In this document: positions 1 through 4,747 of the stretch, in pieces
Layout: the number at the start of each line of letters is the position of its first letter
How positions within the stretch are numbered: position 1 is the first letter of the stretch
DNA from: a virus
Taxonomy: Duplodnaviria; Heunggongvirae; Uroviricota; Caudoviricetes
Direction: 5' to 3' (one strand)
DNA length: 4,747 bases
IMG/VR virus record: IMGVR_UViG_2671180556_000011
Made by a program: the position numbers

Positions 1-3000
1 AGTACGAGGTTCACTATGGCTCGCATCGAACAGGAAGTGATGATTTTGTCTGGGGGGAGTAACAGTCGTTTAACCCCAGAATAATCCCGTAACTGAGGTC
101 GCTATTGGCGGCCTTTTTTGTATCCGCGCCACGCCCGGCGCATATCAACCACAGAGCCTTTCGGGGGTGAGCTTACGGAGTGGTCAGTGTGACTTTCTCT
201 GTGGGCAGATCGCTCCCGGGCGTTGGCTCACCCACCCAAAGGAACGTCACGATGTTTGGTATTTTTGGTAAAAAAGCCCGCCGAGCGGCAGTGGAAATTA
301 AAAAGTTTGAGAAACGTGATCTGGCACAGGCGGTTATTAATGCTGCCTATCTGGTGGCCTATGCAGATGGTGAATGTGAGGCTTCAGAGAAAGTGAAGAT
401 CGAGCAGGTCTTGCGTAACCAGCCTGCGTTGTCCGCGTTTACGTCAGAAATTAATGCGATTAGCGCAACCATTATCGGTCAGCTGGATACGAACTTTAAA
501 ATTGGTCGTCGAGCGGCATTGCGTGAAATTGAAGATGTGAAACACGATACGCGTGAAGCGGAAGATGTGCTGGATGTGGCGGTGGCCATTGCGGAGGCAG
601 ACGGCGAAATTGAGCCGGAAGAGCGCAAGGTGCTGGAAGAGATTGCCGGTGTTCTGGGTCTTCGTCTGGAGAATCACCAGTGACGGTAAAACTGCGCCTG
701 GCTGTGGCTGCACTCCTGCTGTTTCTGGTGGTGATGGTGGACTTCAGCAGCCGGATAATGTCAGTGCTGGCTGACGGTGTGCTGGTGGCGGGTGTGGTGG
801 TTGTTGCTTTCCCGTTGCTGAAAAAGAAAGCATCAGGCGATTAGCAGGGTATCAGTTACCCGTTGAAATTTTTAAATGCCTCACAATTCAGGCGGTTGAC
901 TGTTGTCTGGTTTGCGGGGAGTTTGTTAAAAGAAACTGGCATGGTGAATCCCCCTGTGCGGAGGGGCAATCAGCAACTGGTGTTTTGTCACCGACCCTTA
1001 TCCTTTCTGTGCGGGTTCAGGTGCTGATACTGAACTCACCGGGAGGCACCCGGCACCATGCAATGGCACATAGCGCCACTCTCCAGCCCCTCTCCGGAGG
1101 GGCTGTTTATATTGATTTTGTCAGATGTGAGTAAACTCCTTATGGACTTTGTTGTTTTAGTCCATAAGGACATATTTGCAGAGTGCAACGGTTATTAAAG
1201 CATTCATTCAATACGTTATCTGTATTTGTAGGGCATTCCTGGCTGTTTTTGATTAAATTCCAGAATTTTTTATTGAATGGTACTACGTTGTAAATGGTTA
1301 CAGGTAGCACTTTGTTATTGAGCATGATACCTGTGTGAGTCAGTGTAAATATACTTTCAGGAGGTAAGAAAGCATCCGATTGATACCAGATTATTAATTT
1401 TATTTTACTCCATATGACTGAAAAAGATATTCCGCATGATGGCTGGATAACTGTATCAATCACAATCCACTTCATTTAGTTTCCTTGTTTATGTCTTGCT
1501 GGTGATGTTCTGAAAAGTATAAATGATATTTTTGAATGTAAACCATAGAGCAGAATTATTTTTCTGATGTTGTTTATTGTTTATTTAAATGCAGGGTGGT
1601 TTATATCTCGTCTTGTAGTTTACCCATGCATATCTGCTTGATGATGAGGTTTTTATTTAAGGTATGGTTTTGTGTTTTTTCTGTATTACATGTCAGGTAT
1701 TTTAAAGAATTATTTTTCAGATGGTGGAAAGAACCATGGCATTTAAACACTATGATGTTGTCAGGGCGGCATCGCCGTCAGACCTTGCGAAACGACTGAC
1801 ACAAAAACTGAAGGAGGGGTGGCAGCCATTTGGCAGTCCGGTGGCCATCACGCCCTATACCCTGATGCAGGCCATTGCGGCGGAAGGTGATGTCACCACA
1901 CCTGTGGTGGTGAAGCCGTCGGATGGAGAAGGCGCAGTTATCAGCACCACCAGCAACCCGGAGTATTACTTTGTTGTTGCCCTGGCCGGGCAGTCAAACG
2001 GTATGGCGTATGGTGAAGGGCTTCCGCTGCCGGAGACATATGACCGTCCGGACCCGCGTATTAAACAGCTGGCGCGTCGCAGCACTGTCACGCCGGGTGG
2101 TGCGTCCTGTAACTACAATGACATTATTCCTGCGGACCACTGCCTGCATGATGTTCAGGATTTGAGTAAGTTTTCACACCCGAAAGCCAGCGCAGCTCAG
2201 TATGGATGCGTGGGGCAGGGATTACATATCGCGAAGAAATTGTTGCCGTTTATTCCGGCGAATGCCGGTATTCTTCTGGTTCCGTGCTGCCGTGGTGGTT
2301 CTGCATTTTTGGCGGGCGATGAAGGTACCTTCAGCGAATCCACCGGCGCAAGCGAGACCTCGGCACGCTGGGGTGTAGATAAGCCACTGTACAAGGACCT
2401 GCTTACCCGTACTCAGGCCGCACTGAAGGCTAACCCTAAAAATATTCTGCTTGCAGTGGTCTGGATGCAGGGCGAGTTTGATTTGAAACAGGGTGCATAC
2501 GCCACTCAGCCGGGGCTGTTTGATTCCATGGTGGAAAAATATCGTTCTGACCTGTCGGAATTCGGAGGTCAGTGTCTCGGGGGCTCTCCGTCATCGGTTC
2601 CCTGGATTTGTGGCGACACGACCTACTACTGGAAGCAGACTTATTCTTCGCAATACGATGCGGTGTATGGTGCATACAAGACGAAATCCGCAAAAAAAAT
2701 CTTCTTTGTGCCGTTTATGACGGATGAAAACGGGCGAAATGTGGGTACCAACGAGCCGTCAGAAGATCCGGATGTTGCGGATATTGGGTATTACGGAGCC
2801 GGTGGTCGAACGGACGCCAAAACCTGGACGACGGCCGACCGTAAAACGCATTTTGGATCATGGGCACGTCGTGGGATTATTTCCGACCGTCTGGCAACGG
2901 CGATTCTTGTGCATGCCGGGAGAACCGCTGAATTCATTACCGGAAAACAGCCTGATACGGTGAAGCCCACCGGACCTTCCGGTGAAGGTACGGAGAGAGA

Positions 3001-4747
3001 GCCGGAAGCCCCGGTCAGTAACCGAACCCTGATGAGTCTGCTGGCGTCCGGCGAAGACCTGGCATCACAGGGCTGGCGCTATTATCACAAACCGGCGAGC
3101 GGAGACAATGTTAACAAAAACATTGCTGAAGCGGTGGTCAGTGATGCGGGGGCTACGGGAGGTAAGGCCCTGCAACTGAATAAACCGGAAAACCACATCT
3201 GGTTTCTGGAGCATGATGCAGCCGGACAGGGAGTGGAGTTACTGAAGAAGGGGGGACGTGTGAGCGTACGGTTTAAGTTGCCGGGTTCACTGGTGCCGAA
3301 TCGGTTTGCCCTGGGCATTTACTGGCAGTTGTCGTCCCTGCCGGAGGGAGTGACGCTGGCAGAGGAAGGCAACGACATGCTGATGTCCTTCTTCCTGCAG
3401 ACGGATGCGACGAACCTGAACGCGATGTACCACAAGAAGCCGAATGCGAAGCTGGATACGTTCGGGGTCTTTGATAACGGATGGCACACACTGGCTTTTG
3501 AGTTTGCCGGAAACAACAGCATTCAGGTGACGCCGGTACTGGATGAGAAACGGGGGACGCCGTTCACACTGGTGAAATCTCCGGCATCAGGGGCGGCGGA
3601 CAAACTGCAACTGACAGGCATATCAAAGGCGGCGACATATACGCTGCTGATTGACAGTGTGAAGGTGGAAGTGAACAACGCGGATGCCGCGGCATGATAA
3701 AAAAAGCCGCCAGCGGCAGGAACGGAAGCTGGCGGAGGTAATCCCAATGGAGAATCTAACGAAAGGATGCTTTCGACATCAATCATTTCTAAATGAAAAC
3801 AGTTCTCATTGTCAACCATAACGGTAAGAAACTATGACATTTATTCATCAGGTGATGCTGTACTTCTGTACGGCGGTCTGTGTGCTGTATCTTCTTTCGG
3901 GTGGGTACAGGGCAGTGCGCGATTTCTGGCGCAGGCAGATTGATAAAAGGGCCGCAGAGAAAAACAGCGCCAGTCAGTCAGCCGGAGCAAAAACAGAAGC
4001 CCCACTCATTCCGGAACAACCTTCTTAATAACCCCTTTCAACGAGAAAATCCTATGTCAGAAATAAAATCGCTGGTCACTGCTGAGGCAGTGAAGGAAGT
4101 CCTGCGCTCTGAAGAAGTCCGGAGCGCACTGAAACAGCAACTTCGGCAGAACCTTGAGGCGCGTCTTGATGCAGAAGTGGATGCCATTCTGGATGAATTG
4201 CTTGGTGCACAGCCGGAACCATCCCCGGAACTGCTTCCGGAACCACAGGCGGAAGATGTCACCACGGAAAATGGTGATATTCAGCCGGAGCCACCGGTGA
4301 CGGATATGACAGACACACAGCCAGAATCGGGCACAATGCTGTAACGGTGAGTCAGGGTCATCAGTAAAGAGCTGGTGGCCCTTTTGTTGTTGTGAGCTTC
4401 CGAGTACGGGAGACGGGGTATGTACCAGATGGAAAAAATCACAACAGGTGTGTCATACACCACGTCAGCGGTGGGGACGGGATACTGGTTACTGCAGCTG
4501 CTGGACAAAGTCTCTCCGTCCCAGTGGGTGGCAATAGGTGTGCTGGGGAGTCTGCTGTTTGGCCTGCTGACGTATCTGACTAACCTGTATTTCAAAATCA
4601 GAGAGGACCGGCGTAAGGCGGCGCGGGGAGAGTAAAGTGATGAATAAAAAATACGAACTGGTTGTTAAAGGGATAAATAATTACCCGGATAAGATTACTG
4701 TTACTGTGGCACTGGAAATTGGTGGGTATCCGTCACTGTTGTTGCCA

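Follow-up and report, generated by a model that had tools for sequence, protein, structure and literature searches.

The stretch of DNA considered here, hereafter the window, is the whole 4,747-nt sequence of the IMG/VR virus record IMGVR_UViG_2671180556_000011 (Caudoviricetes), and its main element is nanS-p, the gene of a sialate O-acetylesterase of lambdoid prophages. A preliminary description made from the sequence alone had read this gene as late-operon cargo at the position usual in Stx phages, and had stressed the lack of an adjacent toxin gene. The identification is right and the unusualness was overstated, since both this NanS-p allele and stx-negative prophages of this kind have been described before. 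What our analysis adds is that the type of the N-terminal DUF1737 domain of the esterase co-varies with the head module of the phage, the rest being known already. Taken together, the locus is very probably explained by a nanS-p sialate 9-O-acetylesterase gene belonging to the late operon, under Q control, of a lambdoid E. coli prophage without stx, with a DUF1737 domain, probably an anchor, matched to the head and a cassette exchanged at the stx slot.

The plus strand holds an uninterrupted open reading frame (ORF) from 1721 to 3697, in which the nanS-p coding sequence occupies 1736..3697 (653 aa and the stop codon). The ATG at 1736 is almost certainly the start in use and the upstream ATG at 1721 unlikely, because a Shine-Dalgarno-like GGTGGA lies 8 nt 5' of the former whereas a T-rich run without such a motif precedes the latter, because the N-termini of homologues all read M[AT]FKHYD, and because the equivalent gene in RefSeq is 1962 nt long. 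The three-domain organization proposed in the preliminary description is borne out by three Pfam matches, all above the curated cut-offs: DUF1737 (PF08410, aa 3-50, E 9e-16) and SASA (aa 83-274, E 6e-9), the two families that it had named, and DUF6645 (PF20350, aa 503-616, E 1e-43). Sequence searches of the PDB agree, with 3PT5 (NanS/YjhS) matching aa 73-391 (E 1e-118) and 6YP6 (the C-terminal domain of 'NanS-p') matching aa 464-648 (E 1e-60). The serine codon that had been placed in a GQSN motif at 1994-1996 is exact (Ser87, TCA). The loss of this serine or of the catalytic His and Asp would have pointed to a non-catalytic homologue; in the alignment with NanS the GQSN serine and the catalytic histidine are both kept, and NanS itself has no catalytic Asp. 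Gln86, Ser87 and His372 are invariant across the aligned alleles. The compositionally biased linker announced at about 2940-3030 is also present (aa 402-432, TGKQPDTVKPTGPSGEGTEREPEAPVSNRTL), and is rich in P, T, G and E. Residues 1-40 (MAFKHYDVVRAASPSDLAKRLTQKLKEGWQPFGSPVAITP) are charged, lack a hydrophobic core and fold as DUF1737, which argues against a signal peptide on direct reading, no dedicated predictor having been run. A full-length AlphaFold2 model built from a 12-sequence alignment had a mean pLDDT of 36.5 and was discarded. The features of the window are listed in Table 1.

Table 1. Positions of the nanS-p domains, catalytic residues and neighbouring features in the 4,747-nt window.
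Feature	Position (nt)	Strand	Basis
TerB family protein, 143 aa, first gene of the cassette	252..683	+	Pfam; PHROG 'tellurite resistance' moron
Small DUF3927 membrane protein of 54 aa, downstream member of the cassette, its gene overlapping that of TerB	680..844	+	Pfam; PHROG 'TciB-like inhibition of cell division or resistance to colicin' moron
Terminator-like hairpin of 9 bp (7 G-C), separating the cassette from the iraM-like gene	1084..1105	+	Terminator scan
IraM/PmrD-like protein, 111 aa, its gene opposed to the late genes and lying within an AT-rich island (GC 0.32-0.40)	1140..1475	-	Homology
NanS-p, DUF1737 N-terminal domain (aa 3-50), type I anchor loop	1742..1885	+	Pfam, AlphaFold2 model
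NanS-p, Tyr41 codon, tip of the beta2-beta3 hairpin	1856..1858	+	Alignment, AlphaFold2 model
NanS-p, linker 1 (aa 52-74), DVTTPVVVKPSDGEGAVISTTSN	1889..1957	+	Alignment with phi24B, 12% identity
NanS-p, catalytic domain (SGNH type II / SASA, aa 75-395), a homologue of NanS (YjhS)	1958..2920	+	3PT5 match, Pfam SASA
NanS-p, Gln86-Ser87 of GQSN: oxyanion-hole Gln and nucleophile Ser	1991..1996	+	Aligns with NanS Gln18/Ser19
NanS-p, His372 (CAT), general base, local block R-K-T-H	2849..2851	+	Aligns with NanS His301
NanS-p, linker 2 (aa 396-445), with P/T/G/E-rich stretch	2921..3070	+	Alignment, translation
NanS-p, C-terminal lectin-like jelly-roll domain (DUF6645, aa 446-653)	3071..3694	+	6YP6 match, Pfam, aromatic-site comparison
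DUF1378 small protein	3834..4028	+	Pfam
DUF826 protein	4054..4344	+	Pfam
Holin of class II (phage 21 S-type), with which the lysis cassette begins	4420..4635	+	Pfam, PHROG

The nanS-p allele of the window is a very common E. coli prophage gene. Its DNA is 99.6% identical to a gene that 233 complete E. coli genomes carry at 99% identity or above, and its exact 653-aa product occurs in 126 index blocks of public assemblies (more than 100 assemblies). The protein is identical at 652 of 653 positions to WP_000874454.1 of E. coli O104:H4 and several uropathogenic strains, the sole difference being K19 here and E19 there. A homologue search returned more than 1500 three-domain E. coli proteins, one 90% cluster containing 3518 sequences; genomes of O104:H4 hold 4-5 nanS-p copies, and an E. 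coli genome up to 8. Reviews describe nanS-p in both Stx and non-Stx prophages, with active non-Stx alleles, and one of them states that seven NanS-p alleles of EDL933 and five of O104:H4 were analysed, all being active esterases. The O104:H4 allele one residue away from ours was very probably one of the five enzymes tested, since O104:H4 genomes hold 4-5 copies. Published work also reports that NanS-p supports growth on Neu5,9Ac2 and de-O-acetylates mucin glycans. By its near identity and homology to these alleles, the window protein would likewise be an active esterase. A missing adjacent toxin is consequently no peculiarity, non-Stx copies being documented and active and the nearest allele residing in a stx-negative O104:H4 prophage. 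Nor are the terminal domains the 'least understood' parts of the protein: the C-terminal one has a crystal structure (6YP6) and DUF1737 has been seen in phage phi24B by cryo-EM. As annotated, the gene changes nothing, NanS-p being documented in Stx and non-Stx prophages, its activity shown and two of its three domains provided with structures.

We give almost no credence to the idea that the gene has lost its activity and survives as a remnant of a prophage in decay. Defective prophages are frequent in E. coli, one other locus retains the N-domain only and the WGPS8 copy is marked as a pseudogene; here, however, the 653-aa reading frame is intact, the catalytic and oxyanion residues are all conserved, and the exact sequence recurs in the assemblies counted above.

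The N-terminal domain deserves closer attention. According to a 2026 preprint, gp84, the NanS-p of phi24B, is an abundant virion protein, found at full length on fresh particles and processed on storage. Cryo-EM shows hexamers of its DUF1737 domain (Ala2-Ser57) plugging the central hexon of each facet of the T=9 capsid and anchored by a loop with a Tyr42 'tooth'; SSP motifs were tentatively tied to autoprocessing. We modelled the N-domain of the window protein with AlphaFold2 at a moderate pLDDT of 65: beta1 (6-11), a helix (14-26), beta2 (29-38), a hairpin loop (39-42, T-P-Y-T) and beta3 (43-50). At that confidence, and with a loop three residues shorter, the topology of one helix and three strands agrees with the description of the gp84 N-domain, and Tyr41, at the tip of the hairpin, is a candidate counterpart of the Tyr42 tooth. 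A tyrosine is kept in the anchor loop of all three loop types described below.

The phi24B finding would make 'cargo' a doubtful word for this esterase: the gene does belong to the late operon, and the DUF1737 domain of its phi24B relative decorates capsid hexons. We compared the late regions of 235 IMG/VR loci, collected with three queries and not phylogenetically independent of each other. Anchor loops fall into type I, that of the window (...GSPVAITP-YTLMQ...), type II (...GGPFSSYTDDGAALIQ...) and type III, that of phi24B (...GS(A/P)(L/I)IS(T/N)AGYGAEFIQ...). Head modules are of four kinds: lambdaA, the true lambda set (Nu1/A/W/B/C/D/E); S78type, that of the window's own phage lineage, with Terminase_2/TerL and a fusion of an S78 protease to an HK97-type capsid protein; type670, with a GpA-like 670-aa TerL and a ClpP::Phage_capsid_4 fusion; and phi24B, with Phage_capsid_3. 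After removal of identical loci, type I loops were found with lambdaA heads in 18 loci and S78type heads in 13, type II loops with type670 heads in 22 and lambdaA in 2, and type III loops with phi24B heads in 23 and S78type in 1. The correspondence between loop and head is thus kept in 76 of 79 loci and in 45 of 48 mosaics. Deposited phage and prophage records all obey it (14/14), for example PhiR5_1 (I/lambda), Stx2d_112808 (II/type670) and P13374 (III/phi24B). Type I was never seen with type670 or phi24B heads, either in the 31 loci or in 10 deposited records.

We then measured, along 73 mosaic late regions cut into ordered segments, the adjusted mutual information (AMI) between clusters of the same segment (at least 90% nt identity) and head type. 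The AMI is 0.24 both from 2 kb to 0.3 kb upstream of the gene and in the last 300 nt before it, rises to 0.73 in the N-domain, and falls to 0.41 in linker 1 and to 0.20 and 0.19 in the 5' and the second half of the catalytic domain. It is 0.30 in the C-terminal domain, 0.04 in the first 1 kb downstream, 0.24-0.31 in the lysis region and 0.42 at 1500-701 nt before TerL, and reaches 0.73 again in the terminase small-subunit region (700 nt before TerL). The N-domain peak stays at thresholds of 80% and 97%. When 50 distinct mosaics (defined a little differently from the 48 mentioned above) are each counted once, the N-domain scores 0.69, as against 0.12 for the 300 nt upstream and 0.14 for the 5' catalytic half. 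The body of the esterase lies nearer to the head genes, and yet the head cannot be predicted from it: the cluster to which the window's body belongs was seen with three head types, and bodies at least 92% identical carry different N-types. The N-domain thus stands out as an island tied to the head module, in a region that elsewhere recombines freely. Such a pattern would be expected of a domain obliged to fit the capsid, and supports an extension of the phi24B result to other lambdoid head lineages, that of this prophage included. A scan of genome contigs gave 5 loci, too few for a test of co-variation at the species level.

On this evidence, we estimate at about 0.5 to 0.6 the probability that DUF1737 docks the esterase on the capsid in the window's phage. 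The wider proposal would make nanS-p a head accessory gene, with loop variants kept matched to heads and a mucin-sialate esterase displayed on the capsids of all four lambdoid head lineages; we regard it as evenly balanced. In this proposal, type I would be kept with lambda and S78::HK97 heads, type II with the ClpP::capsid fusion and type III with the phi24B T=9 head, the remainder of the late region recombining freely around the domain, and the display would include the stx-negative, siphovirus-type prophage of the window.

Several observations weigh against capsid docking. One and the same 58-aa type I N-domain accompanies capsid proteins of two unrelated families, the lambda gpE type and the S78::HK97-type fusion. 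The anchor loop is shorter than that of phi24B, and the proposed SSP processing motifs are absent. The phi24B binding site is the flat hexon at the facet centre of a T=9 capsid, which a T=7 lambdoid head would lack. The N-domain model is of moderate confidence, with no fold match in the PDB, and the enzymatic and virion support for the window protein comes from its relatives. Three mosaics break the correspondence: two carry a type II loop with a lambda-type TerL (L125 and L131), and one a type III loop with an S78-type TerL (L195). Finally, part of the co-variation could come from clonal backbones with patches of gene conversion. The late region of L195 is identical to those of the phi24B type until about 1.6 kb past the esterase, and L195 looks like a recent hybrid or a defective prophage.

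Some of these observations favour a possible, somewhat less probable alternative, in which nanS-p of this siphovirus-type prophage is purely a moron that benefits the lysogen: a soluble esterase, freed at lysis, would feed sibling lysogens, and the type I DUF1737 would have no capsid role and be perhaps a relic or an oligomerisation or solubility module. The published NanS-p model is indeed a growth advantage on Neu5,9Ac2 and mucin, and the association of one N-domain with two capsid protein families, the shorter loop, the lack of processing motifs and the T=9-specific hexon are what such a moron might show. Against it stand the fact that the N-domain type predicts the head far better than the DNA on either side, the strict separation of type I from type670 and phi24B heads, and the conservation of the loop tyrosine and of the fold topology.

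We consider it rather unlikely that the co-variation is a population-genetic artefact, in which clonal backbones would keep their ancestral N-domain and head while the body and neighbouring DNA are overwritten by gene conversion among nanS-p paralogues. The multiplicity of copies per genome, the bodies at least 92% identical with different N-types and the non-independence of the IMG/VR loci all lend themselves to this explanation. However, exchange reaches the 300 nt that directly precede the N-domain just as readily as it does the body (AMI 0.12-0.24), one cluster of this segment being seen with types I, II and III. Given this free exchange, a neutral heterology of 165 nt between shared flanks should be swapped often, and only 3 of 48 mosaics are discordant. 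In addition, the association drops to about zero in the 1 kb downstream and increases again only beside TerL.

A third possibility, which we hold to be improbable, is a role in infection: an esterase on or with virions would de-O-acetylate bacterial surface glycans (O-antigen or capsule) and aid adsorption, rather than act on host mucin. It has been raised as an open possibility in a review, and the virion association in phi24B would suit it. Against it, nothing in the present data points to such a role, the substrates demonstrated biochemically in published work are Neu5,9Ac2 and mucin glycans, and the phi24B protein sits on the capsid and not on the tail.

If capsid docking is true, phages would carry a mucus-modifying enzyme on their capsids, a cryo-EM observation on one phage being extended by co-variation to the whole lambdoid family. 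This would bear on the persistence and spread of phages of enterohaemorrhagic E. coli in the mucus layer, and on whether nanS-p is to be counted as a lysogen fitness gene or as a virion component.

Neither a sequence search of the PDB nor Foldseek against it (E < 0.001) returned a match for the N-domain, the copies searched being evidently without the phi24B capsid entries. A homologue search with the 73-aa N-terminus found almost only shortened E. coli fragments, and an exhaustive search of representatives gave 77 matches, of which ten distant ones are, by Pfam, small DUF1737 proteins or low-complexity false friends. In BFVD, matches were weak and limited to small DUF1737 phage proteins. Two of the BFVD entries, K7PMK4 of phage Rogue1 (481 aa) and Q45PZ0 of phage Jk06 (278 aa), start with a DUF1737-like fold (TM 0.73-0.76, rmsd 1.5-1.7, 27-29% identity); these proteins of T1-like E. 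coli siphoviruses, in which the modelled fold is fused to other sequence, are possible further examples of an anchoring module.

Other forms of the domain were also encountered. In phage vB_EcoS-640R1 (L236, 5986-6189) and in L241, the place of nanS-p is taken by a DUF1737 ORF of only 62-67 aa, in the order iraM, DUF1737, small ORF, holin; the N-domain is retained there, and both the esterase body and the lectin domain are deleted. The anchor loop is duplicated in tandem in P0028 (AITPYTLMQAITPYTLMQ), and in P0110 the loop is of a fourth type (VSYDDNGMKIIQ) and the helix diverges more. An 888-nt contig of Xanthomonas pisi DSM 18956 (L242) encodes an N-domain identical to that of phi24B gp84, and is probably E. 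coli phage contamination of the Xanthomonas assembly.

The prophage context was obtained from loci L006-L009, to which the window is 99.9% identical and which extend on both sides of it. Their order is Q, hok, a type I methylase and its specificity subunit, tRNA-Met(CAT), tRNA-Arg(TCG), tRNA-Arg(TCT) and two small ORFs, followed by TerB, DUF3927, the IraM/PmrD-like gene on the minus strand, the esterase, DUF1378, DUF826, the class II holin, DUF1327, lysozyme and Rz, and ending with HNH, Terminase_2, TerL and the S78-protease::HK97-type capsid fusion. The gene thus sits between Q and the tRNAs on one side and the lysis genes on the other, with the holin in the window and Q, the tRNAs and the terminase in the extended loci, so that the Stx-phage position assigned to it beforehand holds true. 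The absence of stx from the 1.7 kb before the gene was verified as well, tblastn giving no Stx2A/B match in the extended loci L005-L010. The statement that there are no tRNAs is accurate for the window, where ARAGORN found none, and is an effect of the window edge, the three tRNA genes lying 516-767 nt upstream of its first base. The upstream 1.7 kb are not empty either, since they hold the TerB, DUF3927 and IraM/PmrD-like genes.

Stx2 phages display a parallel order: Q, a methylase, the same three tRNAs, stx2A, stx2B, iraM on the minus strand, the esterase, DUF1378, DUF826 and the holin. DNA homology between the window and these phages resumes at position 881, which is 37 nt past the DUF3927 stop codon and 46 nt past the phage stx2B stop codon, and the distance from the last tRNA to the start of TerB is about 170 nt in close relatives. 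From these junctions, TerB and DUF3927 fill the slot of stx2AB, one cassette having been exchanged for another within the same flanking sequences. In this lineage of phages the position of stx is a site of swappable cassettes, which helps the reading of 'stx-negative Stx-like' prophages. We dropped the idea that the cassette is a known defence system, PADLOC giving no match for TerB, DUF3927, the IraM-like protein or the esterase.

Other details of this region vary between lineages. The window begins within a 69-aa ORF, of which it holds the last part (1-62, with the stop codon TAA at 60-62). Together with one of 74 aa, this 69-aa ORF lies between the tRNAs and TerB in the window's lineage only, relatives such as L001 and L002 being without these approximately 500 nt. 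Upstream of the window (about 3930-7045 in L006-L008), a 653-aa N6 methylase and a Methylase_S subunit stand between Q/hok and the tRNAs, a type I-like arrangement in which no restriction subunit was seen; in Stx2 phages a single methylase gene of 1059 nt occupies the same position. An iraM-like gene precedes nanS-p in some Stx2 phages, and is missing from the O104:H4 locus.

The preliminary description had left a choice between late antitermination and a promoter in the AT-rich island for the expression of nanS-p. The island promoter finds no support: a crude consensus scan detected no plus-strand sigma-70-like site anywhere in the window, and the three such sites of the island (about 1110-1730) all belong to the minus strand and so to the iraM side, where the site at 1583-1555 precedes the iraM-like start codon. 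The window has 13 terminator-like sites where 4.3 are expected from shuffles. Besides the hairpin that follows the cassette, which lies within a segment (881-1110) whose homologue in Stx2 phages directly follows stx2B, plus-strand hairpins occur in the late operon at 95-115 and 4354-4382. A late transcript would need Q antitermination to pass them.

A plausible course of events can be proposed from these elements. Transcription dependent on Q would read through the hairpins at 95-115, 1084-1105 and 4354-4382, and the esterase would be made upon prophage induction; the literature lists z1466 (nanS-p) among the most strongly induced genes alongside late genes. The protein would accumulate in the cytoplasm and, because it has no signal peptide, would leave the cell at lysis. 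DUF1737 would bind the maturing capsid at its hexons, through the beta-hairpin loop with Tyr41, or else the esterase would be released free by holin-endolysin lysis. The SGNH domain would strip 9-O-acetyl groups from Neu5,9Ac2 and from the sialic acids of mucin O-glycans, while the C-terminal lectin-like domain would hold the enzyme on the glycans. Surviving lysogens could gain usable Neu5Ac, or the phage could gain adherence to mucus or penetration of it.

The anchoring role proposed for DUF1737 recalls the hexon-centre decoration proteins, namely the phi24B decoration protein and its functional analogues Hoc of T4 and pb10 of T5: a small N-terminal module would hold an outward carbohydrate-active or carbohydrate-binding part on the capsid. 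Within the NanS-p family, virion association has been seen for phi24B only, with its type III domain and podovirus head. The nanS-p gene lies in the lysis-proximal late region, outside the head gene cluster.

NanS (YjhS, 3PT5) belongs to the chromosomal sialic acid regulon and not to a phage late operon. Its SGNH type II domain aligns end to end with the catalytic domain of the window protein, with the same Ser/His dyad, no catalytic Asp and the oxyanion Gln. Unlike the window NanS-p, it is a single-domain protein, without DUF1737 and the lectin-like domain.

The reference NanS-p, phi24B vb_24B_21/gp84 (L0105/z1466 of 933W), has the same three domains, the same place in the late operon between Q and the holin, and conserved catalytic residues. 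Overall identity is about 60-63%, distributed as 65% in the N-domain, 12% in linker 1, 72% in the catalytic domain, 35% in linker 2 and 58% in the C-terminal domain. The window has ITP-YTLM in its type I anchor loop where phi24B has TAGYGAEF (type III), the three-residue difference leaving Tyr41 in place, and both its linkers lack the SSP-containing motifs, including SISSP of linker 1, that were proposed as processing sites in phi24B. The proposed sugar site of phi24B (Y510, Y515, Y540, F611) corresponds to F524, Y529, F553 and a one-residue deletion in the window. Because this aromatic site is only partly conserved, the ligand preference of the C-terminal domain may differ from that of phi24B. 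Lastly, phi24B is a T=9 podovirus with stx2 upstream of the esterase gene, whereas the window prophage has no stx.

The closest known system is the stx-negative lambdoid prophage of O104:H4 that encodes WP_000874454.1. It shares with the window the three domains of the esterase, the DUF1378-DUF826-holin succession downstream and the absence of stx. The two differ upstream, where the window has both the TerB/DUF3927 cassette and iraM and the O104:H4 locus has neither, and in their heads, which are of the true lambda type (Nu1/A/W/B/C/D/E) in the O104:H4 prophage and of the Terminase_2/TerL/S78::MCP (major capsid protein) type in the lineage of the window.

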